64,000 nucleotides of DNA from an uncultured virus (IMG/VR IMGVR_UViG_3300013121_000021) (IMGVR_UViG_3300013121_000021), one strand, 5' to 3'. Shown: positions 4,241 to 64,000, counted from the stretch's first letter. Made by a program: numbers and translations. Notes: generated by a model not told the origin, from the sequence alone.

Positions 4241-4258
4241 TTTTATTTACCTCTTGAA

Positions 4259-5521: not shown

Positions 5522-5525
5522 ATAT

Positions 5526-6167: not shown

Positions 6168-6173
6168 AATTTA

Positions 6174-29000: not shown

Positions 29001-32000
29001 ACTCTAGTTATTTTTCTTCCAGTAGTATCAGTTATTACTACAGCTAATCCTACTAAATCACCAACAACATTATTATCTAATGCATAAACTAATTGATTTT
29101 CAGCATTAATAAAAGAATATTCGGAAGCTAATCTTAACCAAAATTGAGCACCATAACTTGTAAATTCACTATTATATGGAATTTCTTGATATACAACTAC
29201 AGAATTTTTTGTTCTAGTTAATATATCAGATAGATTAGTTGCAACATTAAGATCATATATTTGATAATCTTCCGTTACCCAAAATGATGAAGAAGAATTA
29301 TCACTTATTGCTTTAATTTTATCAGCTCTTCTATCTACTAATATTTTATCAGCTGGAATTACATCTGGTATTCCTAAATCACCAATCGTAGGGTAAGTTC
29401 CAGTTATTTCACTTACTGGTATTTGTATAGAACCGTTTAAAAATTTCCAACTTGAATGACTAAAATTACCTTGTGAATTAGCTACTTCTATACCATTAAA
29501 CCAAGTACCACTTGGTATAATATTAAAAAAAGCAGTTGTTTCTAAATATTTAGCTTTAATCCATATAGATACAGTATAATCCACACCTTCAACTAATGTT
29601 GTAGGCATTGGCCAAAGTATAGAAACCCCAGAATATCCATTTAATTTATTAGGATCAGATGATCCTTGTAATAAATCAGAATGATACCCATCTGGATTTG
29701 GATTATATATTGGATCATTAGGTGTTAAATCTTGATTGGCTATTATAGTTGATCCACTATTTTCAACTAAATAATATCCTAATTCATCATTTATTAAAAC
29801 ATCAAAAGTATTTCCATATGGAATAGCATGTTTACCTAATCTTGTAAATGTTGCTAATCTAAATGGATCAAATGGTGAATAAATCAAATCTCCATTTGAA
29901 TTCAATTCATTAATATCTGGATAAAAAAATTCAAGATTGGAATCAATATAATTACCAGTTGGAATACTTAATGAATCATAAATAAATAAATATGGTTCTA
30001 CAAAATCATATAAAGATGTTCCTACTACTAAAGAAGCTCCATATAAATATAGATTAGCATTAGCAGCAATATAAATACTTAATTCACCATTAGAACCTAA
30101 AACAGGATCTGGAATATTTCCAGGAATAGTAAAAGTCCAATTATATCTTTCATACCCATCAGTAGATGGATAAACATAAATTGCATAATTTATAAACCCA
30201 ATTATATTATTTGGATCCCACCAAACAACACCAGTAGGTTCTGTCCATAATCTTAATGCGAAACCATCTGAACCTGAATTTCTTTTTGAATAAACAGAAA
30301 ATGTATAAGTATAATTTGGTTGTAAATAAACATCTAATTTTAATCCACCATATGATAAATCATCAGATACTATTCTATCTGCTAAATTAGATGTTCCAAA
30401 TGGATTTATATCATTATCTCTATAAACTGTATATCCAGGAGTTGCTGGTAGATTAGATGGTGTATATCTCCATCCTTGAAAATTTAAACCTAAATTATTT
30501 TTTATTAAATTATAATCAACAAATCCATATCTTGTTGGGTCGAACGGCAGAGTTAAAGGATTACCATTAATATCTAATTCATCAATAGAACAATCAAAAA
30601 ATTCTAATGAAGAATCTATTGTATCTACATCATAAGTATATAATATTCGATCTTTAAATATAGTATCTGTTGTATCTAACCATGCTCCAAATAGAACTAA
30701 TTGGCTTAAAGTTGGATTATTATCTGGTGAACCAGTTATTCTTATTGCAATTTTAGTTGGCGTATTAGCATCTAAATTTACTGGAGTTGTAAATTGCCAT
30801 GTATATAATGTCCAATCACCAGGTATAGGACTTGTATATACTTCTGTAGGATTAGTTCCAGTATTTCCTACTCCTGGCCAATAAACACTACCAAAAGTAC
30901 TATCTTGATTTAATCTAAAAGAAAATTCACAAAATTTACCAACTGGAATAAGAGTCCATATCTTAAAATAATATTCAGTATTAGGTTGTATTGTAACTTC
31001 GGTTTCTAATCCACCATAAGCATTTGCATCTGCTTTAACTAAATCTGCTAAATTTGAATTACTTAAAGGATCCAGATAAACATCTTTTTCAATAATATAC
31101 CCTTGATTTGGCGAAATCCTATGATTCCATTTATCAAAAGATGTTCCAAATTGTAATAAAGGAATAAAATCTGTATCTAATATCCAACTCTGTTCAATAT
31201 TAAGATCACCTAATTGATCTCCAACTACATTTATTTTATATGTTTGTTCGAATAATAGATCACTCATATTACTTATAATTTGTCTAAAAAATGCACATGT
31301 TGGTATTTGAAAACTCGAATTATATCTGCTTATTCCTTTTGTAATTCTAATACTATCAATATATCCATACCAATTAGTATTACTGATTTTTAATGTTCCA
31401 GGACAAGTTATAGCAGACGCATATGAAACAAAACTATATCCAACACCATCTATATACAATCTTAAATTCCCAGCAACTCTAGTTAAAGCTAAATGATGCC
31501 ATTCTAATGCTCTTATTGTTACAGATGTTGTTGCTCTAATAGAATTAGATGTAAATGTTGTTATTGTTCCTTGTTGAAAAATTTGTAGTCCAGTATCAGT
31601 TGATATAGATCTAGTATCAAATATAGTTCTTAATGTAGCTCCAGTTTCTAATGATTTATACCAAAATTCAATAGTAAAATCATTAGTTCCAAAATCAAAA
31701 TCAATACTTGAAGGGCTATATATTTGATCTCCAGATCCATCAAAATATAATGAAGTATTTCCAAATTTCTTATCTGTAGATACTAATGAAGATTGTCCTA
31801 CTACAGTAAATTCATGATTTTTTTCATCAATTATATCACCTTCCATTGGCATAAATAAAACTACATTATTCCAATAGGGATCATATGGAGTTTCAGAATA
31901 ACTAGGATTATCAAAAGTAATTAAATTTGGATCAAAATTTGAAGTATAATTAGCTTGACCTATTAATACTCTAATACTATCTAAATACCAATCTGGATAT

Positions 32001-43064: not shown

Positions 43065-44396
43065 TTAAATATTACCTAATTCAGCTTCTGTTAACAATTC
43101 ATTATAAACTCTAACAGAAGTTATATGTCCATTAAATCCATTAGACCCAAATTCTAATTTATATAACGCCAAATCATCAGGTAGTAAAATCAAAGAATTC
43201 ACATCAACTGGATTTGAAAATTTAGTATTATTTAAAGAAGCATATATTTGATTATTCGGTTGATTATACACAAATGCAAATCTTTGTGGATGATCACTAT
43301 TTGTAATATAATCAAAAGATACTTCTTCTAAATCTCCTGAATTATCCGTATAATAGGTTCCAAATACTTGTCTACTTTGATCCCACCAATCATGATTTAC
43401 TAAAACATTATTGATACCCATAGATATCTTTGAAGAATCTAATTGAATATCAAATACTTTAGGATATGTATTAGTAGAAGATATAAAATCAAAATCTACT
43501 ACAATACTAAAAGAAGAATTTGGTACTTTTGGGAAATTATATTCGAACGGCGCAAAGAATTCTTCAGCAACTCTTGTTACAGGAGATGCTAAAGTTGGAA
43601 TATAAGAAGACATATAAGGTAACTTTTCTAATTGAGCACCCCATATTAAGATACCATCACCAGATGCATAAGTAACACCATCTGATTTCACTAAATTAAT
43701 TCTTATACCAACTGGATTAGCACCACTTCCAGTATTGAAAGTATAAGATAATCTCATCCAATTATTATTTAACTCTGTAATAGATACAGAAAGACCAGAT
43801 GAAATATCATTAGAAATAAAAGTATTAGAATCAAATGATGCTGCTAAATTAGTATTAGCTTTATTAAATGATTCTACTTTTATCTTATTATACTTATTTG
43901 ATCTAATAAATACAGAAAAAGTATAAATCGTATTAGCATCTAAATTAGTAAATGTTCGTTCAATATAAGAAACATTATTAATATTAGAACCTAATTTCAA
44001 TTCATCTACTGTTCCACTATTATCTGGACTTGGTGTATTTAATAAATCTACAGATACTGTACTATTAGTATTAGTCCATTTTTGAAATTGGGTAGAATAA
44101 GGAATTAAATTAGTAGAAGGTTCATTTTCAACTAATAAACCAGTAGATTCAAATCGTGGCTCATCATATTGAGCATATCTTAATCTACCATAGATATCAA
44201 TATATGATGCAATAGAATTTCTTTTAAAAACAATATTACCAACGCCATGTGACATGATAACATTATTTTTTGTTTGAACGGCGAACATTGGGTTTGCTAA
44301 CTTACCCAACATTCCTCGACTACCAATGTATAATTGAGCTTCTGTAGGCTCACTGTATTTTCTTTGTATTTCTTTAAGGGATAATGTTTTTGACAT
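43065..44396 (-). CDS. LamG-like fibre/spike paralogue 3
   Basis: EPRFESTGLLVE..STNL...WGAQLE...SSYIPT..PVTR...NGHI..VRVYN. Confidence 0.7.
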   Translation of the reverse strand: MSKTLSLKEIQRKYSEPTEAQLYIGSRGMLGKLANPMFAVQTKNNVIMSHGVGNIVFKRNSIASYIDIYGRLRYAQYDEPRFESTGLLVENEPSTNLIPYSTQFQKWTNTNSTVSVDLLNTPSPDNSGTVDELKLGSNINNVSYIERTFTNLDANTIYTFSVFIRSNKYNKIKVESFNKANTNLAASFDSNTFISNDISSGLSVSITELNNNWMRLSYTFNTGSGANPVGIRINLVKSDGVTYASGDGILIWGAQLEKLPYMSSYIPTLASPVTRVAEEFFAPFEYNFPKVPNSSFSIVVDFDFISSTNTYPKVFDIQLDSSKISMGINNVLVNHDWWDQSRQVFGTYYTDNSGDLEEVSFDYITNSDHPQRFAFVYNQPNNQIYASLNNTKFSNPVDVNSLILLPDDLALYKLEFGSNGFNGHITSVRVYNELLTEAELGNI

Positions 44397-44398
44397 AA

Positions 44399-45736
44399 TT
44401 AAACGATTCTAATCTCATCATCGGTTAAAGCTGTATCAAAAATTCTAAAATTAGTGATATGGCCGTTCAAAACATTCTGAGATAAATTAACAGAACTACC
44501 TATATTAATCTTACCTGATGGAAATGTAGCATATTCAGGAGTTGCTCCTAATTTAGAAACAGTTTTAAAGCTATTTCTAAATAAAGAATAATTACCATCA
44601 TCATATCTTAAAGCAATACGATGTTGAGTAAAAGCTTCTAATGAATCTTCTTCAATAATACCATCAATATCATAAAAAGCTTCTAAATTACCATTAGAAG
44701 TAATCTTTAGTGAATTATGTTTAAATCCATCTAAAGTAAATATATCTCTATTAGTATTATGCTTAGTACCTAAAATATCAATATCTAATACATAGGTATT
44801 TTCAGTTGTAGGGAAATTAATAGTAGTATTTAAAATATCTATCTCTAACCAATCAGAAGCTCTTGTTACTGGAGATGATTCAGTAACAATATAAGAGGAC
44901 ATAAAATAATTTTCTTCTAATTGAAAACCCCATAATAAAATAGAGTTCCATTGATTCATTTCAGCAGCATAAGATTCATAATAAGAATTATTAGAACCTT
45001 CTTTGATAGTTTTTGCTGTAAACCTTAAAGTAGGGAATGTTGTATTAGATACAGTAGTAATAGTAAAAGACATTGAAACTCTATACCAACCACCCCACAT
45101 TTTTTGTACTGCATATGAAGGATTAGAAAAGAATTGTGAACCAGTTATAATATCATTAAAGAATATACCATTTTCCACATCAAGTAATGTAGAATACATA
45201 TTAGTATCAGTAGTATCACCTACTACTAACTTTACAAATTTACCATTACCCTTTCTTACAAATAAACTAACAGTATAATTTTTTATTGTACTATTTGGAA
45301 TATTTAACGGGATATCTTGATATATAATATGAGTAGTATTATTGGTATTATCTACTAATTCAAAATGTTTTGCTAAAATACCATTTGGAGCGGCTAATGT
45401 TTGAGAAGAAGATAAAGTAATAGTACTATTAGTTACTTTCCAATATTCATTATTAGTTAATAATTCTGAATATCGTACTAAATTAGTAGAAGCTCCTTCA
45501 ATTAATAGTCCATTCTTTTCGAATCTTGGTTCATCAATATTGGCATAAGATACTAAACCCATTCTATCAATATAAGTTGCATTAGAACTTCTATTAAATG
45601 CAACAGTTCCTACACCAGTTACAGGATTTAAATTATTTTGTAACGGCAAATGTAAGATAGGAGTATTTAAAACACCATAATTAGGGCTGTTTGTTTGATT
45701 TTGTAACGATCCTACTGAAGGGTAAATTCTAGCCAT
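44399..45736 (-). CDS. LamG-like fibre/spike paralogue 2
   Basis: EPRFEKNGLLIEGASTNL...WGFQLE...SSYI.T..PVTRASD...NGHI.NFRIFD. Confidence 0.7.
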   Translation of the reverse strand: MARIYPSVGSLQNQTNSPNYGVLNTPILHLPLQNNLNPVTGVGTVAFNRSSNATYIDRMGLVSYANIDEPRFEKNGLLIEGASTNLVRYSELLTNNEYWKVTNSTITLSSSQTLAAPNGILAKHFELVDNTNNTTHIIYQDIPLNIPNSTIKNYTVSLFVRKGNGKFVKLVVGDTTDTNMYSTLLDVENGIFFNDIITGSQFFSNPSYAVQKMWGGWYRVSMSFTITTVSNTTFPTLRFTAKTIKEGSNNSYYESYAAEMNQWNSILLWGFQLEENYFMSSYIVTESSPVTRASDWLEIDILNTTINFPTTENTYVLDIDILGTKHNTNRDIFTLDGFKHNSLKITSNGNLEAFYDIDGIIEEDSLEAFTQHRIALRYDDGNYSLFRNSFKTVSKLGATPEYATFPSGKINIGSSVNLSQNVLNGHITNFRIFDTALTDDEIRIV

Positions 45737-45741
45737 TTATA

Positions 45742-47085
45742 TTACACCATGATGATTTCATCTTTTGAAAAAGCTCTATCATAAATTCTAAAATTACAGA
45801 TATGCCCATCAAAATAAATATTATTAATAGGATCTTCACCAAAATGCAAATATGTATTTACACCAGCAGTATAAGGTTCATCAATTCCAGTTGTTTCAAT
45901 TTTACCATTGGCAAAAGCATGAACTGTATTTGCACTTCTAGTATAACCTATTTTATGTTTTGCTTTAAAATCGGTCATTACTGGAAGAATATGTTCAATT
46001 TGAGTACTGGGATTAATAATAAACCCACCCTGATTAGTATTTGCTTCTTGAGTCCATTTAATAACGCGAGATTTTTCCCTACTATCAGGTAGAGAACCGT
46101 ATAAAGATCCTGTCCAAAAGATACTATGACCGCTAGAGCGATAAGGACCTCTTAACTTTACTTCTAATAATACTGTGTGATCAAAAGACAGATCAGGTAA
46201 ATTCCGATCATTTTCAATTAATAATACATCAGAAGATCTAATTTCTTCTGCACCAGAAGTAGCAATATAAGAAGTAGAATACCATTTTCGTTCTACTTGA
46301 GCACCATATACAGCTATTGTTTTATTATTAGTATTAGAACCCCAAGTACCAATTGATAATCCAAATTCATAATCATGAGAGGTATCAATTGTATTAATAG
46401 ATTCTATTGTTAAAGATATTCTAAACCAACCATTTGCTAATTCTTCTACTTTATAATCAGCAAATCTAGTAATATTCAAAGTATAGATCAAAGATACAGT
46501 TGGAGAAATTTTTCCATTAGCATCAAAAGAAAACTGTGCTCTTGATAAAATATTTGAGGTTACATTTTTAATATATAAATTAAAAGAATCTGTTGGATTA
46601 GTTGCTCCTTTATGTACAAATATAGATAAAGTTAAAGGATTTAATCCAGCTTCTGTTAATTTTCTAGTATAAGAAATAGTTTGAGTATCACTTACACCGG
46701 CAGATGTTAAAGTTGTTGCAAATGAATTACTTGTATTAGTTGGATCTAGAATAGTAGAAGTTGTAGTTGTAACGGAAGATTTTACCCAATTAGCATGAGA
46801 GAAAGTATTAGACCTAACTATATGATTCTTTGTAGAAGATTCTAATAGAATGCCATCATATTCAAATCGCGGTTGATCTATTGGAGCAAATACTAACTTT
46901 TTAGTTAATCTATCAATATAAGATGCTACTGAAGATCGCCCAAAAGTTAAACTACCAAATCCATCATAAACCAAACTATGTTCGAATGTTGCATTACATA
47001 ATGGGAAAGCTATATCAGAAGCTAGACCCAAATAATTATTTACTGTTTCTAAGCTTGATTTTGTCTTAGTGGTTTTTCTTGACAT
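45742..47085 (-). CDS. LamG-like fibre/spike paralogue 1
   Basis: QPRFEYDGILLE...YGAQVE...TSYIAT...R.SD...DGHI.NFRIYD. Confidence 0.7.
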   Translation of the reverse strand: MSRKTTKTKSSLETVNNYLGLASDIAFPLCNATFEHSLVYDGFGSLTFGRSSVASYIDRLTKKLVFAPIDQPRFEYDGILLESSTKNHIVRSNTFSHANWVKSSVTTTTSTILDPTNTSNSFATTLTSAGVSDTQTISYTRKLTEAGLNPLTLSIFVHKGATNPTDSFNLYIKNVTSNILSRAQFSFDANGKISPTVSLIYTLNITRFADYKVEELANGWFRISLTIESINTIDTSHDYEFGLSIGTWGSNTNNKTIAVYGAQVERKWYSTSYIATSGAEEIRSSDVLLIENDRNLPDLSFDHTVLLEVKLRGPYRSSGHSIFWTGSLYGSLPDSREKSRVIKWTQEANTNQGGFIINPSTQIEHILPVMTDFKAKHKIGYTRSANTVHAFANGKIETTGIDEPYTAGVNTYLHFGEDPINNIYFDGHICNFRIYDRAFSKDEIIMV

Positions 47086-48181: not shown

Positions 48182-48512
48182 CTACTATAAATATAAAATG
48201 AGTATATGAATTTGGGTTATCTTCATAAATAGATAAAACAGTTACTTTATTTGATTCAGATTTAGTTATTGTTTTATCTTTATTAAATTTTGTTGTTACT
48301 GTAACGGGAGGTATTTCGCCGTATTTATTTGTATCTATATTTACTAAAATTGTTCTATGAATCATTATTTGATGAGATGCAATTGATGATTCATAAGTAA
48401 CGCTGATTACATTGGATGAAAAATTGGATAATAATTTTGGATCTTCAATTTCTATTATTTTACCATCTTTTTCATCACAAAAATTTACCATTAACGATTC
48501 TAATATATTCAT
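48081..48512 (-). CDS. Hypothetical protein
   Basis: ATGA-coupled to the sspB-like gene. Confidence 0.55.
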   Translation of the reverse strand: MNILESLMVNFCDEKDGKIIEIEDPKLLSNFSSNVISVTYESSIASHQIMIHRTILVNIDTNKYGEIPPVTVTTKFNKDKTITKSESNKVTVLSIYEDNPNSYTHFIFIVDGFATIYKLPSINNEQPKPKQPRRNRRDNKVSS

Positions 48513-48964
48513 TTTTTATTTTTAAATAACGGCACAACTTTATTATCTTTTTCAGGTTCTATTTCGGATTCTAATTTAGATTCTAATTTAGATTCTATAA
48601 TAGAATTTTTTTTCATATCAAATTGTTTTATTTTCTCTATATCAAATCCTGTTACAAAACCCATATTATTTTCTTTTGAAAATAATGATAAAACATGATT
48701 TGTAGGGAATTCAACATATTGTTCTTTACCTGAAAATCGAGCTTTAAATGAAATTAAATCATCCGTTATTTGTAAATCTACGGCAGCAATAGGATTTATA
48801 TTTAAAATAATTATTCCTTCATTATTTAAATATTGCTGTGGAATATATTGTTGATCTTTACCATAGACAGCTATAAATGGTGTATGATCATTATCTAAAC
48901 ACCAATTTAAAGTTGCCATTAATTGATAAGTTAATAAATTTTTATTTTTACATCTAGGATTCAT
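48509..48964 (-). CDS. sspB: Stringent starvation protein B (ClpXP specificity-enhancing adaptor)
   Basis: W.LDND.TP.I.V...IP.QY...G.IILNI.P.A..DL......ISF.ARFSG...P...V..LF.KEN..G matches the SspB core; acidic tail ending VVPLFKNKK. Confidence 0.85.
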   Translation of the reverse strand: MNPRCKNKNLLTYQLMATLNWCLDNDHTPFIAVYGKDQQYIPQQYLNNEGIIILNINPIAAVDLQITDDLISFKARFSGKEQYVEFPTNHVLSLFSKENNMGFVTGFDIEKIKQFDMKKNSIIESKLESKLESEIEPEKDNKVVPLFKNKK

Positions 48965-49385: not shown

Positions 49386-49615
49386 ATCTCCTCCTTTATA
49401 AATTCTTCGATTATTTTTACTAACTGAGTATTAATATCTGGTTTTTGAAAATCTATATCTAATAATTTTTCTGTTAATGATGTTTTTGTTTCTTTAACGG
49501 CAGATTTCCAACAGTGATAAAATTGTTTTGTAAATTGATAAAAATAATTATTAGTATTTTCTATCTTATTTGTTGGGATACCATTTTGTTTTGCCCATAC
49601 TTCAAATTGATTCAT
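49382..49615 (-). CDS. Hypothetical protein
   Basis: 77 aa, ATGA-coupled. Confidence 0.55.
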   Translation of the reverse strand: MNQFEVWAKQNGIPTNKIENTNNYFYQFTKQFYHCWKSAVKETKTSLTEKLLDIDFQKPDINTQLVKIIEEFIKEEI

Positions 49616-50448
49616 AACCCTATTATTTTATGAGAAATATTATCTTTAGAACTATTTTTAATTTTATACATTTCGGCATCAGCTATATCAATTAAATCTT
49701 GTGATAAATAAATTTGATCTACTTTTTCACAATTAATTGATAAAATTCCATAACTACATGATATATTTAATTTTTTAAATTTTATCTTAATTTTATTTCT
49801 TATTCTAGATATTATTTCGCTTGCATTTGATGGAGAAGATTCTACTAATATTATTGCAAATTCATCTCCTCCCATTCTAGCTACAGAATCTATTTTTCTT
49901 ACAGAAGTTTTTAATATTGTTGCGAATTCTTGTAATACTTTATTAGCTTGTATATGTCCTAATTTATCATTAACGTATTTAAATCCATCTATATCTAAAA
50001 ATACAATGGTTAACCATTTTTTATATCTATAACATCTATTTACTTCATTATCTAATAAATAGTTAAAATGATCAATATCATATAATTTTGTTAATGGATC
50101 TTTAATACTTATTTCTTTTATTTTTTCAATTTGTTTAGATATAACTGATAAAATTAAAGGAAATACAATTAGTGAAAATATAATTTGTGAATTATACATT
50201 AATTTTAATTCTTCCATATCCTTTGGAATTATTGGAAAATATATATCATATAATTTTAAAGAAAAAGTTATAATTGAAAGTATTATTAATAATAATCTAT
50301 CTACTATCCAAACACATAATATAAATTCAATAATATAAACTGGACATGGTACTATATAATATGTAAATAAATCAATATATAACGTTAATGATAAAATTGA
50401 TGTTACTATAATTGATTTTATAAAAAAACTACAACAATTTTTAATCAT
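49612..50448 (-). CDS. Membrane-anchored GGDEF (diguanylate cyclase-family) protein
   Basis: Hydrophobic N-terminus; DPLT, DIDGFKYVND.LGH, RxxD I-site (RKID) and RMGGDEF. Confidence 0.9.
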   Translation of the reverse strand: MIKNCCSFFIKSIIVTSILSLTLYIDLFTYYIVPCPVYIIEFILCVWIVDRLLLIILSIITFSLKLYDIYFPIIPKDMEELKLMYNSQIIFSLIVFPLILSVISKQIEKIKEISIKDPLTKLYDIDHFNYLLDNEVNRCYRYKKWLTIVFLDIDGFKYVNDKLGHIQANKVLQEFATILKTSVRKIDSVARMGGDEFAIILVESSPSNASEIISRIRNKIKIKFKKLNISCSYGILSINCEKVDQIYLSQDLIDIADAEMYKIKNSSKDNISHKIIGL

Positions 50449-50963: not shown

Positions 50964-51000
50964 ATTCACCGGTACACAATAAATATGTATACCGGTGAAT
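50964..51000 (-). terminator. Terminator-like hairpin after the tasA-like gene
   Basis: ATTCACCGGTA...TACCGGTGAAT stem followed by U-rich sequence on the minus strand. Confidence 0.6.
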
Positions 51001-51008
51001 TTTTATTC

Positions 51009-52016
51009 TTAGGCCGCCTTCTTTTCCCTCTTCGGAGGCTTCTCAAAGATCTCCCTCAAAGTCCTTTGAGGGTGAGTGTACCCCAATTTCACCTGTTCGT
51101 ATCTTCCCTTGAGTGGCAGATTTTCGAATTGTCGCCAATATGTCCACATATCAGCGAGAAATTCCTTGATCATATAACGCACTGCGGCGTTATGCTTATG
51201 ACCTTTGGATTTTCCTTCCCAATTGGGATGCATGTCAAGACGTTGCTTGTAATTATCGTAAACCGTACGATATGGTCCACCCATCTTAATGAAAGATGGA
51301 CCAAGAACTCCAAGCAGTTTGGTTTTAACAAAGGGATTAAACGTAATCCCTTTCGTCTTAACCAGTTCACCTTCCATGTCGATATATTCCTTATCGACCA
51401 AGTGTGCTTTTCGGCGCGAACGCCCTTCCGAGTGGATCACTCCATCATCATCTTCATAGACGACAACGTCCACCCCACAGTACTTGTGAAGCGCAGCGAT
51501 CGAATTACACTTAGTAATATCGATCTCCGACAAAATAACGCCTGCCATTCGCGGTCCAACTCCATGGACATTGACCAAGTAATAATTGTAGAACGGGTAA
51601 TTTACCAATTCTTTAGCTACCAATTCAGCATAGATGTCTTCGGAGGCTCGCATGTGATCAAAAGCTTCGAAGATGCGAATGTCATCTTGCGTTTTCAAAA
51701 GAGTGATTTCCTTATCTTCTTTGTAGTTTTTCGGCAGACGAACCCGACGCTTCGCCATGTCCAATACCTCGTCGGACATCAGGCGGTTTTCAATCTTGAC
51801 TTTCGTCTTGATGTGGTCATACTCTTCCTTGAGGATCTTGAGCAATTTCTTGCTCTTCTCTTCTTGCTCATCCTTGTTTAAGGCGGCATATTGCTCCTCG
51901 GTTAAACCGAGGGCGTTTCTGAAGATTTGTACCAGCCGATTGCCGATACTAATCCTCAATTTCTGTTGGTCGTACATCGTACGAACCAGCATCCCAAGAC
52001 GGGACTTCATACTCAT
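51009..52016 (-). CDS. Nop/IS110-like RNA-binding protein without a nuclease domain (TasA-like TIGR-associated protein)
   Basis: N-terminal helix LVRTMYDQQKLRISIGNRL; VHGVGPRMAGVILSEIDITKCNSIAALHKYCG aligns with the IS110/Nop helical motif (IPGIGP..A..LLAEI......L..YAG); FNPFVKTKL...YDNYKQRL...HKHNAAVRYMIKEFL. No RuvC DEDD or HNH motif. AGAGGA RBS. Confidence 0.8.
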   Translation of the reverse strand: MSMKSRLGMLVRTMYDQQKLRISIGNRLVQIFRNALGLTEEQYAALNKDEQEEKSKKLLKILKEEYDHIKTKVKIENRLMSDEVLDMAKRRVRLPKNYKEDKEITLLKTQDDIRIFEAFDHMRASEDIYAELVAKELVNYPFYNYYLVNVHGVGPRMAGVILSEIDITKCNSIAALHKYCGVDVVVYEDDDGVIHSEGRSRRKAHLVDKEYIDMEGELVKTKGITFNPFVKTKLLGVLGPSFIKMGGPYRTVYDNYKQRLDMHPNWEGKSKGHKHNAAVRYMIKEFLADMWTYWRQFENLPLKGRYEQVKLGYTHPQRTLREIFEKPPKREKKAA

Positions 52017-52085
52017 TTTTGTTTCCTCTTATAACTTTGTGAGACTTTTTAACAAAAAAGAAAGATAACATCTTCCTTTTCTATT

Positions 52086-52100
52086 ATATAATATCTATAT
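52086..52100 (-). promoter_or_regulatory. Promoter-like motif ATATAGATATTATAT upstream of the tasA-like gene
   Basis: Exact 15-mer about 70 nt upstream of the start codon. Confidence 0.6.
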
Positions 52101-52703: not shown

Positions 52704-53009
52704 TTAAAACCCCAAATCGTCTAAAGATAAAATATGTTTTGATATTATGTCATATGGAAAAGAAGAAGATCCATATCTTCTATTTGTATATTCAGGAATA
52801 GAAACTATTACTTCTATTCTTGTAGAAGTATGATAATTAATTCCAACATAGGTAGAATCTTTACTAAAATTTATTTTAATATATTTTTTAACGGCGTTTA
52901 TAATATCTTTTAAAGGAATATCATTATATGATTTTGGTAAATCATAAATTGGTTGTTTTGTTGGTTGTTCTGGAACGGCAAAGAACATTAATTGTGAAAT
53001 ATCAATCAT
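52704..53009 (-). CDS. Hypothetical protein
   Basis: ATGA-coupled to the helicase gene. Confidence 0.55.
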   Translation of the reverse strand: MIDISQLMFFAVPEQPTKQPIYDLPKSYNDIPLKDIINAVKKYIKINFSKDSTYVGINYHTSTRIEVIVSIPEYTNRRYGSSSFPYDIISKHILSLDDLGF

Positions 53010-54391
53010 GACTTATGTTTATATCCATATGGAAAAAGATAATCTACTAATACTAATGAAGTCTTACATCTGGTAATAGCAGTATATAACCATTTATCAC
53101 TATATTGTTTAAACATCATTGATTCATTAAGAATCAATCCTTTATTTGCTTCGCTTCCTTGTGCTTTATGAACAGTTAATGCTCTACCAAAAGAAACTTC
53201 TACTATTTTATTAAAAGGATAACTTTCCCAATTAATTTTATACTTTCTTAAAAATTCAGTTTGTATATAAGGAAATTTTGGTAATTTATTTGAACGCCTA
53301 AATTTTCTTATAGTAGAATAACATGACATTAAAATTTGATATTCATCTTCATCTTGTTCAGATAAATAATGTTTAAAAATTGGTTTTATTAATAATGATC
53401 CTCCTTCTTCATTTTTAACAAACATTGTTGGAATATTTGTCCAATTTATTTTTTTATTTAAAGGATATGATGAATAATCATCTTGAACTATTAACATATC
53501 AGAATTATAAATATCTAAATCATAGTTATTTTTCCAAACAATTAAAGTTTCATCTTTAACGGGAAATCTATTAGTATTATATCCTTTTAATTGTCTATAA
53601 TAATCATTTATTCGTTTTACACTTCTATTAGAACCGCATAAAATAAGATCTGAATCTAAAACTAAATCTTCTCTATGTTTATCTAATTGTATTGATTTTA
53701 AATATTTATAAGCTGGTAATTGATAATTTTCAAAATAATTTAATTTACCACCATCTCTTACTTTATTAGCAGCAAATAATATAGGACTATCTTGTGCTTG
53801 TCTATGTATTTCTGTTAATATAAAGTTTGGATCTTTTAAAACGGAAAAATTTAAACCGTATATTTTTTCTTCATCTTTAGATAAAATAGGAGGTAATTGA
53901 AAATTATCTCCAATATATAATATTGGTAATCCTACTTCTACCAAATCAATATGAATAGATGGAGTTATCATTGAACTCTCATCTACTATTAATAAATCAT
54001 GCTCGCTTTTAATTTCTTCTACATTTTTTCTTATAAATTCAATTTCATTTGAATCAGAAGTTTTAACTTCATACAATAAATTATGAATTGTTTTTGCTTT
54101 TGTTACACCTTTCTTTTGAAGTATTTTTTTAGCTTTATTTGTAAATGCTATAACCGCAGGTTGAACTCCAAATGTATTCTCAGTGCTATTATTACATTTT
54201 TTATCAATTTTAATTGCTTCAGTTTGATATTTTTTATATTCAGATATAATATAATTTATAAGATATGATTTGCCAGTACCAGCATTTCCAACCAAAGAAA
54301 AATATTTTTTTAATTTGTTTTTAGGATCAAAATTAATTTTCCATTGTGAAAAATTATCATATGCTTCTTGTTGCTGATCTGTTAGTTTCAT
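53006..54391 (-). CDS. RecD/Dda-like superfamily 1B DNA helicase
   Basis: Walker A GNAGTGKS, AFTNKA, TIH, IVDESSM, IGDNFQLPP, LTEIHRQ, ALTVHKAQGSE, LYTAITR. Confidence 0.9.
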   Translation of the reverse strand: MKLTDQQQEAYDNFSQWKINFDPKNKLKKYFSLVGNAGTGKSYLINYIISEYKKYQTEAIKIDKKCNNSTENTFGVQPAVIAFTNKAKKILQKKGVTKAKTIHNLLYEVKTSDSNEIEFIRKNVEEIKSEHDLLIVDESSMITPSIHIDLVEVGLPILYIGDNFQLPPILSKDEEKIYGLNFSVLKDPNFILTEIHRQAQDSPILFAANKVRDGGKLNYFENYQLPAYKYLKSIQLDKHREDLVLDSDLILCGSNRSVKRINDYYRQLKGYNTNRFPVKDETLIVWKNNYDLDIYNSDMLIVQDDYSSYPLNKKINWTNIPTMFVKNEEGGSLLIKPIFKHYLSEQDEDEYQILMSCYSTIRKFRRSNKLPKFPYIQTEFLRKYKINWESYPFNKIVEVSFGRALTVHKAQGSEANKGLILNESMMFKQYSDKWLYTAITRCKTSLVLVDYLFPYGYKHKS

Positions 54392-54458: not shown

Positions 54459-54821
54459 TTATACTTCGAATATTGGAGTTGGTTTTAATTTTTCAAAAAC
54501 GCTCTCAATATATGTTAATGGAGTATTGTTGTCAAATTTGGCAATAATTTGACCTAAATGTCCATCTTTTCGAAGAAACATTTTTTTCTCCGATTGATTA
54601 TAAGCGAACATATAAGTCTTTCCATTAATTGTCAACCAAACTCTCGATCGCGTCCGTCCACATTGTGATTGCCAAACTTCAAAAGGAACACCGCGATCTT
54701 GTTTCCATGTTGCATGTCCTAACAAAGTAGGAATAATATTTCTAATTGATGGGACATGATGATTTACTGCAGATTTTCCATAATCAAAAAAATCGCGGAG
54801 ATCAAAAGTTTTTACTTTCAT
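54459..54821 (-). CDS. Protein resembling the integron cassette family VCH_CASS14
   Basis: HH......I..L.G...WK.D...VW..INGK.Y.F.YN...FDN.TPL..I...F..L pattern, recognised from memory. Confidence 0.55.
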   Translation of the reverse strand: MKVKTFDLRDFFDYGKSAVNHHVPSIRNIIPTLLGHATWKQDRGVPFEVWQSQCGRTRSRVWLTINGKTYMFAYNQSEKKMFLRKDGHLGQIIAKFDNNTPLTYIESVFEKLKPTPIFEV

Positions 54822-57961: not shown

Positions 57962-58292
57962 ATAATAATTTATAATACTCCTTTATATCTTGATTATCTA
58001 ATATTTCTAAAAAATAATTAAATAATATGTCATAATTAATATCATTTCTAATTGATATAAGTATCATAAAATTTTGATTACAAAACTCTTTAAGTAAAAA
58101 AAATGGATCTTTTTTAATTATATCTATAAATTTATCAATATTAAATATAAGTTGCACTTTATTTTTTCTATTTATTTTCCGAATTTTAATCTTTATTTTT
58201 TCATCATCAATAATTTCAAATATTATATTAATTTTTATAGATTTATTCTTTATAGTATTAAATTTATTTACTTTAATAGATATTTCAAGCAT
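57954..58292 (-). CDS. Tandem paralogue family member 7
   Basis: Ends NQDIKEYYKLLYV. Confidence 0.6.
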   Translation of the reverse strand: MLEISIKVNKFNTIKNKSIKINIIFEIIDDEKIKIKIRKINRKNKVQLIFNIDKFIDIIKKDPFFLLKEFCNQNFMILISIRNDINYDILFNYFLEILDNQDIKEYYKLLYV

Positions 58293-58644
58293 ATTTTAAT
58301 ATATAATATTCTTTTAATAATGGGTCATCTATTATATTAAAAAAATAATATCTAAAATTATCACATATAATATCTGAAAAAATTAAATCATTTTGATCGC
58401 AAAAAAACTTTGGTATAAAATATGGTTTATCTTCTAAATTATCTAAAACCCATTCAATTGTCGAAAAGAATTCAACTGGTTTATAATTATCACAATGAAT
58501 TTTAAAATTTAACATATCTGAACTATTTTTTTCAATAATAACATTTAATTCTAAATAGTTTAGAGCTATTGATGAACTTAAAATATTTTGACTTAGATTT
58601 GAAGAATCATCTACTGATATAATACTAACACCAATTTTAAACAT
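58285..58644 (-). CDS. Tandem paralogue family member 6
   Basis: Ends DPLLKEYYILKYA. Confidence 0.6.
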   Translation of the reverse strand: MFKIGVSIISVDDSSNLSQNILSSSIALNYLELNVIIEKNSSDMLNFKIHCDNYKPVEFFSTIEWVLDNLEDKPYFIPKFFCDQNDLIFSDIICDNFRYYFFNIIDDPLLKEYYILKYA

Positions 58645-58990
58645 ATTTTAACCTTAAATATTCTTGAGTATATTTATTTTGTATAAAATTCATTAAATGT
58701 AGCATTATTTCTTTCTTTCCTTCATCTGTTATGTTTAAATTATTTGGAAAATAAACATAATCTATTAATTGTAATATAATTTCATCTGATTCTACTCTAG
58801 AACATAATTTTTTTATGTTTTGTTTTCTTCTTTTTATAGAAGATAAATTTAATAAATGTACTTTTGGTAATTGATGAGTAAAATCATATATTATTACTGT
58901 TTGATATTTATTATTTTTACTAAGTTTCGAATAAATTGTAATTGGTTTAAATAATTCTTCTGATTTAAATTCATAAAATTCAGTAGTCAT
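58637..58990 (-). CDS. Tandem paralogue family member 5
   Basis: Ends NKYTQEYLRLKYV. Confidence 0.6.
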   Translation of the reverse strand: MTTEFYEFKSEELFKPITIYSKLSKNNKYQTVIIYDFTHQLPKVHLLNLSSIKRRKQNIKKLCSRVESDEIILQLIDYVYFPNNLNITDEGKKEIMLHLMNFIQNKYTQEYLRLKYV

Positions 58991-59355
58991 AAATATTTTA
59001 ACTTTAAATATTCACGTTCATGGTTATCTGGATAAAAAGATATCAAAAACTGAACGATATGTTTTCTATCTTCATCATTATTATTTATATCTATTATTTT
59101 TTTAATAAAACTTTCTAATTTCTTTATATTTTTAAACTCTTTCTTTTCTATTCCATAAGCATGTGCTTGAGAATAAGTAGTATCATAAATTATAATATGT
59201 TTACTTTCTACCATAGAAAAAATTGTAATTGGAGATATAATTATACTTGAATCAATAGAAAAATCATAATGCATACGGAATAAATGTTTTGGTAAAACAC
59301 CTAACGGCCCAGTATAAGTTATTGGAAAGTTATGTATTTCTGTGCTAAGTTTCAT
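58987..59355 (-). CDS. Tandem paralogue family member 4
   Basis: Ends DNHEREYLKLKYL. Confidence 0.6.
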   Translation of the reverse strand: MKLSTEIHNFPITYTGPLGVLPKHLFRMHYDFSIDSSIIISPITIFSMVESKHIIIYDTTYSQAHAYGIEKKEFKNIKKLESFIKKIIDINNNDEDRKHIVQFLISFYPDNHEREYLKLKYL

Positions 59356-59654
59356 ATATATTTTAACTTTAAATATTCGCGTTCATTTATATCTTTAATA
59401 AAATCTAATATATATAATATAATTTCTTTTTTATTATTTTGCACATATGTATAATCAATAAATTTTAATGTTTTTTCTATTAATTTTTTTAATTTTTTAT
59501 CATTTGTTTGTTCATATAATTCTAATTGATACGTATATGATTCTGGTTTTCGAATAGACAAATCCCATATACTTAATCTTTTAAGATTATAATTATGGTT
59601 ATTATTTGAAAAAACTAATACACTTTTTTGTTTAGTTAAAATAATATTTAACAT
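59352..59654 (-). CDS. Tandem paralogue family member 3
   Basis: Ends DINEREYLKLKYI. Confidence 0.6.
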   Translation of the reverse strand: MLNIILTKQKSVLVFSNNNHNYNLKRLSIWDLSIRKPESYTYQLELYEQTNDKKLKKLIEKTLKFIDYTYVQNNKKEIILYILDFIKDINEREYLKLKYI

Positions 59655-59995
59655 TATATATACTTTAACTTTAAATATTCTTTAAAAAAAGGATCTAATG
59701 AATATTGGATTACTTGTTCTATTGCTGGATTACATAAATGAGAACTTCTAATGTATAATTTTAAAGATTGAATTGTTTTTTCTATTACTTCATTTGAAGT
59801 ACTTTTTTCTACTTCATTTGAACCAAATTTAAATAAATATTGAAAATTATGAGAAATTGGAGTATGTGTTTTTTCAAATTCATCTTCAACATCATGAAAA
59901 AACATTCTCATTGTTAAATTTACTTTAATAAATTTATTACTATCGAACGGCGAATATATTGAAACTTCTAAACTAAATGGATGTTTTGCTATCAT
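59654..59995 (-). CDS. Tandem paralogue family member 2
   Basis: Ends DPFFKEYLKLKYI. Confidence 0.6.
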   Translation of the reverse strand: MIAKHPFSLEVSIYSPFDSNKFIKVNLTMRMFFHDVEDEFEKTHTPISHNFQYLFKFGSNEVEKSTSNEVIEKTIQSLKLYIRSSHLCNPAIEQVIQYSLDPFFKEYLKLKYI

Positions 59996-60348
59996 ATATA
60001 TTTTAATTTATAAAATTCTTTAATATCTTGATTATAAATTAATTCAATTAAAAATTTTATAACATAATCATGATGAACACTTCTTGAAAATATAAATGAA
60101 AAGAATAAATTATTATCTTTAGGATCAATTTCTTCTACTATATCTATCATATTTATAGTATCTATTAATAATTTATCCATATTATTATATTCTAATATAG
60201 TTTTAGTATTATAACTTAGAATATGTAAAGTTCTTTCAAAAGAAAACATTAAATAAATTATTGTAGCTCCTCTTTTTATTTCATTTTCTTTTACATTAAA
60301 TCCCACCATAGAATAAAATTCTATTCTAGGAAAATTATTATCTATCAT
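59992..60348 (-). CDS. Tandem paralogue family member 1
   Basis: Ends NQDIKEFYKLKYI. Confidence 0.6.
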   Translation of the reverse strand: MIDNNFPRIEFYSMVGFNVKENEIKRGATIIYLMFSFERTLHILSYNTKTILEYNNMDKLLIDTINMIDIVEEIDPKDNNLFFSFIFSRSVHHDYVIKFLIELIYNQDIKEFYKLKYI

Positions 60349-60353
60349 AAAGT

Positions 60354-60384
60354 AAAAAAGCTACTGAAGCTAAATTCAGTAGCT
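60354..60384 (-). terminator. Intrinsic terminator closing the array transcript
   Basis: AGCTACTGAA/TTCAGTAGCT 10-bp stem followed by a U-tract on the minus strand. Confidence 0.7.
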
Positions 60385-60392
60385 GTATTTAA

Positions 60393-60503
60393 TTATTTTT
60401 TAATAAAGAGTGCTTCCAATATTTTATATACTGAAAGTAATCCTATACCAACTAAAACTAATCCAGAAACTTCTTTTACTGTTTTGTACTTATCTTCTTT
60501 CAT
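60393..60503 (-). CDS. 36-aa single-transmembrane peptide (not in ORF track)
   Basis: MKEDKYKTVKEVSGLVLVGIGLLSVYKILEALFIKK; lies between the array and the terminator. Confidence 0.5.
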   Translation of the reverse strand: MKEDKYKTVKEVSGLVLVGIGLLSVYKILEALFIKK

Positions 60504-60541
60504 AATAAAAATTTAATGTGGTTGGGACAGATTCCCCATTA

Positions 60542-62736
60542 TGATAAAATTAAGGGTTTAGTATCTATTCAATCACTTTGTTAAAATTCGTGTCCATATT
60601 TCTATTCGAGCAGTATGTTAAAATCGTCCACCATGTAACTATTTTAAGAAGAGTGTTAAAATTTAACTCTTTGTATCTATTTGACAACCGTGTTAAAATC
60701 AGTCTTAATATAACTGATTAACAGTTCTGTTAAAATTTCATTTTCAGTTTTTGATACTGCTTGTTGTTAAAATACGCTCTTCTATTTCTGATATACGGTC
60801 TTGTTAAAATTCCCGCCGGTATTTCTGATAGACTGTCTTGTTAAAATCGTACTCAATGAGTCTTTTTTCATCTCGTGTTAAAATAGAATTGTGTAAGTCT
60901 ATTTACATTTATTGTTAAAATTCGTATATCTAAATCTGATCATACGAAGTGTTAAACTTGTTTCTGATGTATCTATTAATCTTAGATGTTAAAATCAATA
61001 TCGATGATTCTAATTGCCGTAGGTGTTAAAATAAATTCGCTTATTTCTACTTTTGGCAATTGTTAAAATTCATCGGTCTGTTTCTGTTTGGCCTAATTGT
61101 TAAAATCGGGTCCTTTGTTTCTAATTCGAATCCCTGTTAAAATAGAACAGTATGTTTCTGATTTTGATCAATGTTAAAATACACACCACTATTTCTATTT
61201 TGACGTAGTGTTAAAATTACAACTTCTGTTTCTAATAGTAATTCTTGTTAAAATACTTTGTAATGTATTTGTTTGGTTTCGATGTTAAAATTGGCACACT
61301 TGTATTCTAATCAAAATCCCTGTTAAAATTTGCCTTATTGTTTCTAATACCACATAGCGTTAAAATTTACACCTTTGTTTCTGATTCGGGTCAGTGTTAA
61401 AATTTCTCCTTTTATTCCTGATCAAGATGTTTGTTAAAATTCGTATCTTTGTTTCTGATAAGAGGACGTGTTAAAATAAGCGCCTTTATTTCTGATTTAA
61501 AATTATGTTAAAATTTTACTTCATGTTTCTATTAAATAATATTGTTTAAATAAATTCAAGAATTTCTGATTCGCGATAATGTTAAAATCACTTTTCGTAT
61601 TTCTGATGGAGTCTCATGTTAAAATTGTGTGCCATATTTCTGATCTGCGCGCTTGTTAAAATCCAACCCTTTACTTCTGGTTATGGGCGTTGTTAAAATT
61701 GGCTTTTTTATTTCTATTCATGGGAGGTGTTAAAATGCGCCTCATTATTTCTGATCCACATGCTTGTTAAAATTCGTCAGAATATTTCTGATCTGGTTCA
61801 GTGTTAAAATCATCACCTATATTTTTGATCCGGCCGAATGTTAAAATCAGGCCCTTTATTTCTGATCAATATTAATGTTAAAATGGAAGCTCGTGTTTCT
61901 ATTCGTCATCATTGTTAAAATTCTCCTCATTATTTCTGATCAATTTTAATGTTAAAATCCGCCAACCTTATTTCTGATTGTTCATGCTGTTAAAATAAGT
62001 TCATCTATTTCTAATCTACGCCAGTGTTAAAATTCTCAGCATTATTTCTGATCACCTCTGCCGTTAAAATACCGATTGTTATTTCTGATTCGATTTTTTG
62101 TTAAAATGACTGGCCCTATTTCTGATCGGGCCGAATGTTAAAATAACCTGCTTTATTTCTATTTGGGGGAGGTGTTAAAATACGGAACGTTATTTCCGAT
62201 CCAACATCATGTTAAAATAACTGACCTTATTTCTAATCATTCATCCTGTTAAAATAACCAAATTTATTTCTGATTGCTAATTGTGTTAAAATAGAGATTT
62301 ATATTTCTGATTATTTATATTGTTAAAATATTCCACACTATTTCTGATTGAGCCCGATGTTAAAATTAGCACCTTTATTTCTGATCAATATCAATGTTAA
62401 AATAATGAGCTCTATTTCTGATCGGGCCGAATGTTAAAATCGGCTTTTTTATTTCTATTTGCGGCAGTTGTTAAAATTTATCCTCGTATTTCTGATCAAT
62501 ATGTTCGTTAAAATACCGATTGTTATTTCTGATTCGATTTTTTGTTAAAATATTTCCGCATATTTCTGATTAATACTTCTGTTAAAATTAGCGACACTAT
62601 TTCTGATCGAATCAAATGTTAAAATCCACCGCACTATTTCTGATCTAAGAACTTGTTAAAATCGGCTTCGATATTTCTGATTATTCATCTTGTTAAAATA
62701 CCTGTTGCTATTTCTGATTTGAGTTCGTGTTAAATT
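60542..62736 (-). ncRNA. TIGR-like dual-repeat guide-RNA array: 59 units of 37 nt (edge repeat, 9-nt spacer, loop repeat, 9-nt spacer)
   Basis: Plus-strand consensus TGTTAAAAT-N9-T(A/G)TTTCT(GA/AA/AT)T-N9. 60 edge repeats from 60542 to 62728; period 37 except three 38-nt units (starting 60616, 61283, 61950). Strand inferred from the promoter motif at 62768 and the degeneration gradient. Confidence 0.85.
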
Positions 62737-62767
62737 AGAAAAAAATTTAAAAAATCTTTTCTATAAA

Positions 62768-62782
62768 ATATTATATCTATAT
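62768..62782 (-). promoter_or_regulatory. Promoter-like motif ATATAGATATAATAT in the array leader
   Basis: About 31 nt from the best-conserved end of the array, pointing into it. Confidence 0.6.
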
Positions 62783-62879
62783 CAAATAGTATAAAAATTA
62801 ATCGGTAAAAACCCACCCAAATAATCAATACTTAATATTAATTATTTGGGTAAGTATAAAAATAGGTCGGTAAAAAAAC

Positions 62880-63460
62880 CAATCCTATACTTCAATATTT
62901 AATAGATTTTTTATGCTTCCGCGTCTATTAAATATAAATTTTTCGCTTTAATTATCGGCACTTTCCTTTTATTTTTGTATTTAAACCGATACAAATTCGG
63001 GTTTCAACGGATTATCATAGAGTTTTATATAAAAACTATTATACTTATCCTTGCTGTGGTACTCTCGTCTTCAACCGATACCCCACTATCCACAACTCTT
63101 TCATATCTCATACATTCCTATGTACTTCATATAACTAGTGTCATTTTTCAACGCACAACTTTGACGTGCTAGCCTCTACTCAGTAACTTTCCCGGATATT
63201 TTCTTCTCTAGGTAGACGAATCCCCTAGTTAAGTACTTTTAGCTGCTATTTAAGACTTCCGCGCCATAGAATACTTCTATCCGTCCTACTTATTACCTTT
63301 CCGCGCTCTCTCATGTAGCTACGTAGACCCTTCCCCTATATTTTAGTCCTTGCTTTGCGTTACAGTTTATCTTTGCACATCCTCAATGGCTGTGGGATAT
63401 AAACTTTCGCCCAGTTTTAATTCCGCGCGCTACGCTGGAACAACCGTTGAACGGTCACCT
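62880..63460 (-). ncRNA. Candidate large structured non-coding RNA
   Basis: GC-elevated with no convincing ORF; promoter-motif variant at 63461-63475; 8-bp long-range complementarity 63003-63010/63444-63451; repeated GCGCGGAA and TAGGGGA-N3-GTCTAC motifs. Confidence 0.45.
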
Positions 63461-63605
63461 CAATAATTTCTATATATAATGTGACCAAACCCAAAAATTA
63501 TACTTAAGTAACCTAAATGCTATTTTTTATACTAATACTAAAAATGTATAAATGATATATTGTACTTTCTGTTACTAACATATTTTTTTAAAACACTAGT
63601 ATAAT

Positions 63606-63688
63606 TTTTGAAAACACGGAAAATAGTAAAAAAATATTAGTAGAAAAATTTAAGTTACTAATTTTGAAAACACGGAAAATAGTAAAAA
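63606..63688. repeat. 27-bp direct repeat in an AT-rich non-coding region
   Basis: TTTTGAAAACACGGAAAATAGTAAAAA at 63606-63632 and 63662-63688. Confidence 0.8.
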
Positions 63689-64000
63689 CTATATCAAACT
63701 ATTAAAAAATAGTAATATAGTTTATAATTTTTTCCTAATAGGCTTTAAGTTAAAAGCTAGCTCTCTTGGATAAAAAAGTACTAGTATAAAAAAAATTCGG
63801 AAAAAATGCGTCCTATGACCACATAGGAACTCACTCATAAGTAGCATCTTTATCTCTTAAATACATTCCCAAAAATCCCAAAAACAAAAATTTGTTAATG
63901 TAAATTTAAGGTACTAATTCCTTCAAAAGATAAGTTTTTTATGCACCCGACGTATAAACCATCTTTTAGTCTATGTTTTTTCAGTCAAGGTTTTTTCATT

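Follow-up and report, generated by a model that had tools for sequence, protein, structure and literature searches.

A stretch of 64,000 nucleotides (nt) from an uncultured virus (IMG/VR IMGVR_UViG_3300013121_000021), referred to below as the window, was found to contain near one end a 59-unit array of two alternating short repeats and, 8.5 kb from it, a gene for a Nop-domain protein that lacks a nuclease. Together these very probably constitute a dual-repeat TIGR-TasA system of a large tailed phage, organised as two minus-strand transcription units and expected to bind its targets without cutting them. The locus belongs to the TIGR-TasA family described in 2025 and stands out from the relatives compared here in the length of the array, its distance from tas and a recoded edge repeat. 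The assignment is carried by the anatomy and strand of the array and by the homology, fold and predicted dimer of the protein; transcription, processing, DNA binding and repression would be expected of this array by analogy with published relatives. The two components are as follows.

60542..62736, minus strand: TIGR array of 59 units, each with edge ATTTTAACA, spacer A (9 nt), loop ATCAGAAAYA and spacer B (9 nt)
51009..52016, minus strand: tasA (P0001), 335 amino acids, coiled coil and Nop domain, nuclease-less; assigned from sequence, fold and relatives

Anatomy of the array and of the Tas protein

According to Faure 2025 (PMC12045711), dual-repeat TIGR arrays consist of two alternating repeats of 8–12 nt with spacers of about 9 nt. 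A first-pass annotation of the window had described 59 units of alternating 9- and 10-nt repeats at 60542–62736, and this description held. Parsed on the minus strand, the array comprises 56 head-to-tail units of 37 nt and 3 of 38 nt, in each of which a 9-nt edge repeat is followed by a spacer A of about 9 nt, a 10-nt loop repeat and a spacer B of about 9 nt; in RNA form the edge reads AUUUUAACA and the loop AUCAGAAAYA. The plus-strand 8-mer GTTAAAAT recurs at a 37-nt spacing nearly throughout, and Tandem Repeats Finder returned a period of 37 for the array, together with its multiples 74 and 111. Of the 59 units, 53 have an exact edge repeat, ATTTTAACA, and 25 an exact loop repeat, ATCAGAAATA, and a clean 9+9 spacer parse was obtained for 51. 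When the 64-kb window was searched, all 53 exact edge copies and all 25 exact minus-strand loop copies fell within the array; outside it, zero edge copies were found on either strand and only three loop 10-mers, all on the plus strand, a concentration of repeats in the array that is far beyond chance. The period is not a multiple of 3, as first noted, and the array has no reading frame: no open reading frame (ORF) of at least 60 amino acids crosses it, the longest in any frame being 47 amino acids, and Rfam gave zero matches over positions 58000–64000 at E values up to 1.

Both repeats begin with AU and end with A(C/U)A, and thus have their start (box D) and end (box C) letters in common. The edge repeat stays intact across the array; the loop repeat, with hardly any changes at the 62.7-kb end, degrades toward 60.5 kb, with a mean match to the consensus of 9.65 of 10 letters in the first 20 units against 7.3 of 10 in the last 20. 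The promoter-proximal end of the array is placed at 62736 and the decayed distal end at 60542, where the last edge repeat (60542–60550) is degenerate, so that the array closes on a partial edge repeat, with a terminator-like hairpin about 160 nt further on. The earlier figure of up to about 59 guides is correct as a count of units but, given the decay of the distal loops, is an upper bound for the number of guides.

On sequence and predicted fold, the ORF at 51009–52016 encodes a Tas (Nop-domain) protein, as the first-pass annotation had anticipated. When P0001 was compared with all PDB sequences, the only significant matches were TaTasR (9mty, E value 1.2e-11) and SpTasH (21kl, E value 1.8e-9), and a profile of 29 sequences of its relatives strengthened these to 2.3e-27 and 2.6e-21, respectively; the only Pfam match was below threshold, to the IS110-type family Transposase_20. 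In the AlphaFold model (predicted local distance difference test score, pLDDT, of 89.1), residues 1–145 are all helix and are followed by a Nop-type domain, and a Foldseek search of the PDB with this model placed TasH or TasR chains in all of the top ten positions (E values 1e-8 to 9e-7), followed by IS110-family recombinases. An HNH or RuvC domain was not found in P0001 by Pfam and a nuclease fold was not seen in the N-terminal 145 residues of the model; the 29 aligned relatives begin at the same conserved helix. The absence of a nuclease domain makes P0001 a protein of the TasA type, for which binding rather than cutting would be expected. TasA has been reported to bind unit-length guide RNAs, termed tigRNAs (Faure 2025, PMC12045711), and to repress transcription under RNA guidance (Xu et al. 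2026 preprint 10.64898/2026.09.09.750476).

In dual-repeat Tas proteins a Tyr/His loop processes the precursor RNA. In P0001 the residue aligned to the catalytic Tyr289 of SpTasH is Tyr306, which does not vary among the 29 relatives, and His315 is kept in 23 of the 29. Prediction of a P0001 homodimer gave a score of 0.66, compared with 0.27 for the best control, with an interface formed by helices 9–31 and 111–135, at least 94% of contacts agreeing between runs and a partner pLDDT of at least 78. Among proteins of solved structure, 20 of 30 pairs attain the mark set for this score, as does 1 of 23 single chains; because a custom alignment was used and Tas dimers have been solved, the pass may merely mirror that likeness.

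Relatives, edge pairing and transcription units

Relatives of P0001 were found 310 times in IMG/VR, at least 415 times in metagenome contigs and 26 times among genomes of 185,579 species, the best of them beyond its own 159-kb contig having 59% identity. The closest relative in a genome bin, at 46% identity, comes from a metagenome-assembled genome of Candidatus Moraniibacteriota, on a contig that may be viral. An array with a 36- or 37-nt period was present at 129 of the 156 distinct relatives' loci fetched, and this same build beside Tas genes bears out the assignment of the window array as TIGR-like and not CRISPR. The longest array among the relatives' loci (129–156 compared) has about 35 units, against 59 here; published TIGR arrays most often have 5 to 15 units (Faure 2025), and dual-repeat arrays average about 16 (65,635 tigRNAs in 4,126 arrays).

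The strand of the array was read from the same comparison. Among 163 array segments of relatives, 140 lie on the tas strand, 22 have too few motif hits to be scored and 1 appeared to be opposite, the latter being an unrelated 18-nt repeat and not a TIGR array. Scanning the window array with AACAGAAACA, the loop consensus of the closest relatives, gave 45 matches on the minus strand (at most two mismatches) and 0 on the plus strand, so the RNA corresponds to the minus strand, the same as tasA, and all genes neighbouring the array and tasA are also on the minus strand. The repeats as first written, on the plus strand, are therefore the reverse complements of the functional ones.

Within the edge repeat, Faure et al. 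(2025, PMC12045711) describe a further pair in addition to the box C/D pair, and TIGRFinder, as published, recognises edges by complementarity between the ends of a 4-nt gap. In the relatives, four edge consensuses could be fully resolved (71 arrays), and all pair at positions 2:7 (A:U, G:C or G:U) and 3:6 (C:G or U:A), with the loop repeats pairing at 2:7 only; these counts are of loci and not lineages, and loci present in both collections were left unmerged. The window edge has U:A at both 2:7 and 3:6, although just A1, C8 and A9 are in common with the relatives' edge AGCGAGCCA. Each pair has thus been preserved through changes to both of its members, a pattern that speaks for selection on the array RNA. 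By its sequence the window edge is A/U-rich, unlike the G/C-richer edges of relatives, and a pattern scan of IMG/VR (edge, nine free letters, loop) returned only 4 single chance matches and no second array with this edge. Comparison with the published repeats thus agrees in the pairs 2:7 and 3:6, although the box letters differ from the published ones. The view that the array is a divergent variant, proposed from its AT-rich repeats and length, is sustained by the A/U edge and the 59 units but not by the 37-nt unit, which is shared by at least nine of the closest relatives, nor by the loop, which is nearly the relatives' own.

The sequences flanking the array and tasA contain the following elements.

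62765..62781, minus strand: promoter-like motif TATAGATAT and then A/T-rich letters resembling TATAAT, about 30 nt ahead of the first edge repeat
52083..52099, minus strand: a further copy of this promoter-like motif, 66 nt ahead of the tasA start codon
62812..62854, minus strand: terminator-like hairpin just upstream of the array promoter motif, which would close off upstream transcription
60359..60384, minus strand: terminator-like hairpin with a T run, about 160 nt past the last edge repeat
50964..51000, minus strand: terminator-like hairpin directly after tasA
60393..60503, minus strand: candidate ORF of 36 amino acids with a hydrophobic stretch, between array end and terminator
25468 and 39263, plus strand, and 47896, 52099, 54869, 55732 and 62781, minus strand: the seven sites of the extended motif

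The 9-mer TATAGATAT occurs 12 times in the window where 4.35 would be expected, a number that 0 of 100 shuffles reached, and when extended by (T/A)ATATAAT-like letters it is found at seven intergenic sites, each aimed at the next gene. Elements of this type are probably a promoter class of the phage. As the array and tasA each have their own promoter-like motif and terminator-like hairpins, they look, in the DNA, like two separate minus-strand transcription units of one promoter class, 8.5 kb apart. Upstream of the array, on the minus strand, 1.1 kb (62860–64000) is without a convincing ORF and includes a purine-rich, G/C-richer segment (63040–63470) with four GCGCGGAA-like words; folding of 63030–63480 gave z-scores of -0.69 and -0.74 for the two strands, which do not support a structured RNA.

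Spacers, proposed mechanism and alternative explanations

Most units of the array are unique. One unit is present twice, 12 units apart and with the same variant of the following edge repeat; seven pairs of units have at least 12 of 18 spacer letters in common, where column permutation gave an expectation of 0.84, and some units have an identical spacer A with a different spacer B. Such sharing fits occasional duplication of units followed by divergence, and equally guides against related sites. A purine occupies position 9 of spacer A in 43 of the 51 parsed units, so that the freely variable part may be slightly shorter than 18 nt. The G+C (GC) content of the spacers is 0.444, compared with 0.289 for the phage and a maximum of 0.345 in 2000 random sets. 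Because the spacers of relatives also have a GC content of about 0.42, while their flanking GC ranges from 0.35 to 0.60 (slope 0.41 and r 0.53 over 73 arrays, L002–L191, at least two of which are non-TIGR repeats), the high value may reflect stable 9-bp pairing and need not mean foreign origin; the stability of the 9-bp guide-target duplex may be under some constraint.

The form of the target was taken from the published wcaD case in Escherichia coli K-12, where the reverse complement of spacer B of TaTIGR unit 1 is directly preceded by a 9-mer with five identities and one G:U pair to spacer A, so that in a target the letters of spacer A come first and the reverse complement of spacer B directly after them. 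For 51 units, all four joinings of the two spacers were searched on both strands of the window beyond the array, and no joining rose above shuffled pairings (totals over the four joinings at two or fewer mismatches were 4 real against 1.85 for the summed control means). Scans of IMG/VR for two 18-nt targets gave 1 and 2 hits, which is the chance level, and a second spacer was matched at none of the three loci; in collections as large as these, a single 18-mer is without statistical power. The adjacent 9+9 matches in any orientation, for which the first-pass annotation had proposed a search, thus show no excess in the window, and those in the published geometry stand at chance in the two IMG/VR scans.

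Taken by analogy with published relatives, the likely function of the system is multiplex RNA-guided DNA binding without cutting, and its operation may be pictured as follows. A phage promoter near 62.77 kb would drive a precursor of about 2.4 kb over the 59-unit array, and TasA would be expressed, 8.5 kb downstream, from a second promoter of that class. As a coiled-coil dimer, TasA would bind the edge and loop repeats, and its C-terminal Tyr/His loop would cut the precursor within each edge repeat to give tigRNAs of about 37 nt. The two 9-nt spacers of each tigRNA could then pair with adjacent 9-bp stretches on opposite DNA strands, defining sites of 18 bp, at which the nuclease-less complexes would bind and block transcription or replication of host or competing DNA, in repression or interference.

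Several observations weigh against this interpretation. The distance of 8.5 kb between array and tasA exceeds that at every one of the 129 relatives' loci, where the gap to the nearest array has a median of 0 bp, a 95th percentile of 521 bp and a maximum of 2,417 bp, so that the case for coupling the two is made by homology and by the promoter motif that they share. In about 10 distal units the loop repeats are poor. The box letters depart from the published UG...CCA, both repeats here being AU...ACA/AUA, and the centre of the edge is UU, where GA was found in the 84 classifiable arrays among 96 of relatives, a count that means only that no resolved alternative turned up, since the classifier demanded GA. 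In the protein, His315 sits two residues beyond the position of SpTasH His296. Finally, in the published geometry the 61.8 kb of the window outside the array contain 0 matches at two or fewer mismatches and 5 at three mismatches, compared with 4.65 for shuffled pairings.

Some of these observations could be accommodated if the array were a relic or orphan, once beside tas, since separated from it by gene insertions, and now unused or only partly used by TasA. The distance from tasA, the loop decay in the distal third and the targets not found in the window or in two IMG/VR scans would all be in keeping with such a history, which we nevertheless regard as improbable, because 53 of the 59 edges are exact, the 20 promoter-proximal units are near perfect, the edge pairs have been kept through two-sided changes, the array has a terminator and a tasA-class promoter-like motif to itself, the tasA gene is intact and retains conserved residues, and identical pieces of the array occur in samples of four studies. 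Somewhat less remote, but still unlikely, is a role for TasA and its guides other than plain repression, such as marking DNA for a helicase or nuclease, excluding competitors at replication, or aiding segregation or integration. The Dda/RecD-like helicase gene (53006–54391) between array and tasA would suit such a role, which the discussion of Faure et al. lists as open, and self-regulation is disfavoured by the spacer GC content, 0.44 where the phage has 0.29; on the other side, no conserved partner was seen beside tas in the relatives, whose arrays adjoin tas, and repression is the only TasA activity shown so far according to the Xu 2026 preprint.

Two further explanations concern the nature of the array itself. 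Were it transcribed from the plus strand, both repeats would begin with T(G/A)TT and recall the UG of the published box D, but this is very improbable in the face of the 45 minus-strand and 0 plus-strand matches to the relatives' loop consensus, the 140 of 141 scorable segments of relatives that share the strand of tas, the orientation of the promoter-like motif and of both terminator-like hairpins, which suits the minus strand, and the neighbouring genes, all of which are minus. The regular look of repeats and spacers might also suggest something other than a guide array of this kind, namely CRISPR, a protein-coding repeat or iterons bound by a protein. This can be given hardly any credence, as there are two kinds of repeat, of 9 and 10 nt, against a single one of 25–36 nt in CRISPR, no Rfam match, a period that is not a multiple of 3, no ORF above 47 amino acids, and the same build beside Tas genes at 129 of 156 loci; Cas families were found neither among 30 proteins examined with Pfam nor among 12 examined with PADLOC, helicase-type matches aside.

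Within the preferred reading, that of a TIGR-TasA system that binds without cutting, we consider it possible, but rather doubtful, that the array is a loosened, autonomous guide library, separately promoted, heading a block of small genes of unassigned function and about twice the length of any array seen beside 156 relatives, its edge recoded from G/C-rich to A/U by double changes that restored the pairs. If so, the cutting loop of TasA would have co-evolved with its new substrate, and the related and duplicated units would record growth of the array by copying and divergence in a system without known spacer acquisition.

Phage context and comparison with known systems

The window is part of a tailed phage, with tail-fibre, baseplate and virion genes and a GC content of 24–33%. 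No near-identical DNA was matched among 50,697 phage records, isolated phages gave no near relative, and no tRNA genes were found in the window. The 8.5 kb separating the array from tasA hold about 20 small genes without a confident Pfam match, a gene of an integron-cassette family and a gene for a Dda-like helicase, whose best phage matches have about 30% identity and scattered hosts. The neighbouring genes with assignable products are listed below.

53006–54391: Dda/RecD-like helicase
54459–54821, minus strand: small protein of the integron-cassette family VCH_CASS14 (Pfam E value 2e-9)
49612–50448, minus strand: GGDEF diguanylate cyclase (Pfam E value 2.8e-33), two genes downstream of tasA
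48509–48964, minus strand: SspB-like ClpXP adaptor (Pfam E value 2.4e-15), the nearest Atlas clusters including a mostly viral one

By its domain content the GGDEF gene suggests interference of the phage with cyclic di-GMP signalling of the host. The nearest Atlas clusters of the GGDEF and SspB-like proteins lean toward Pseudomonadota, which is a lead to the host and no more. Elsewhere in the window, three tandem minus-strand genes at 1952–8432 (762, 420 and 752 amino acids) all match the same RCC1-like repeat PHROG families, three further tandem genes of near-equal length at 43065–47085 (443, 445 and 447 amino acids, also minus) have tail-protein or Laminin_G_3 matches, and a gene for a virion protein of 2,621 amino acids occupies 26066–33931.

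Contigs from four sequencing runs, each of a different sludge or digester metagenome study, contained pieces of the array without any difference, and a few low-depth contigs have the same repeats with other spacers. No RNA run was among those listed for this DNA. In one low-depth contig (62320–62440) the flanking repeats and neighbouring spacers are kept and the spacer at 62346–62357 differs at nearly every letter; replacement of a single spacer between strains, or an assembly artefact, is possible. The natural targets of TIGR-Tas and the way in which spacers are gained are described as still open, and 59 guides in one phage, which is represented by a 159-kb contig and recurs unchanged in sludge samples of several studies, would make a good case for target hunting once the complete phage genome and the genomes of co-occurring hosts are searched. 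Catalogue pipelines search near tas only and rely on canonical box letters, and an array lying 8.5 kb away, as what looks like a transcription unit of its own, is relevant to the 'arrayless' tas loci that they report. The A/U edge with its intact pairing is moreover a natural experiment on whether Tas proteins and the processing step read structure or sequence. The published catalogues were covered in part, so the length, distance and edge features may have precedents, and longer arrays, A/U-type edges or this contig itself may already be catalogued; a search for a 22-residue peptide of P0001 gave no match among the 9,182 Table S1 protein rows of Faure 2025 listed, which does not in itself show its absence.

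A detectable Tas relative occurs in only three of the 50,697 phage records, and the only full-length one is ORF034 of Ralstonia phage phiRSL1, annotated as a transposase (32% identity over 91% of the protein). A 1.4-kb unannotated gap after ORF034 (L165 8990–10320; record 14247–15577) holds about 37 degenerate 36-nt dual-repeat units, which, unlike those of the window, are directly downstream of the gene and have G/C-rich repeats. The words RSL1 and Ralstonia occur zero times in the main text of Faure 2025. As a cultured jumbo phage with a known host, phiRSL1 could serve for finding natural TIGR targets. The closest proteins among the fetched loci form a 37-nt subclade of uncultured relatives (L001, L002, L081–L084, L086 and L166; 44–48% identity), which has the 37-nt period of the window and a 10-nt loop, AACAGAAACA, with 8–9 of 10 letters as in the window, whereas its edge is AGCGAG(C/T)CA and its arrays, of about 5–14 units, adjoin tas.

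The systems described for FpTIGR of Flavonifractor plautii (Faure 2025, PMC12045711) and MbTasA (Xu 2026) could be set beside the window by their published descriptions. Both are alike in having a nuclease-less Tas protein of coiled coil and Nop domain, edge and loop repeats, two 9-nt spacers, an array on the tas strand and a phage context; their units are of 36 nt, whereas the window has 37 nt with a 10-nt loop, an A/U-rich edge and an array 8.5 kb off in a separate unit. SpTIGR-TasH of Salicola phage CGphi29 (PDB 9w03, 9w04 and 21kl; PMC13421893) resembles the window system in its Nop domain, by sequence and by fold, in the Tyr of its dyad and in a phage-borne dual-repeat array, and differs in an N-terminal HNH nuclease that cuts DNA, spacers of 8 nt, a AGCGAGCCA-like edge and a dyad His two residues earlier. 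TaTIGR-TasR (9mty), the best sequence match among solved structures, likewise has a coiled-coil dimer and two edge base pairs, but its RuvC nuclease is active and its repeats start with UG and end with CCA. CRISPR follows the same logic of repeats and spacers as guides; the window has no cas genes, its dual repeats are very short and its guides are split over both DNA strands. In box C/D small nucleolar ribonucleoproteins and IS110 bridge RNAs, as here, a Nop-domain protein reads box C/D-like motifs and there are two guide segments, although the Tas protein of the window is without a methylase or recombinase domain. The known mechanism of TIGR systems is left unchanged by the window locus.

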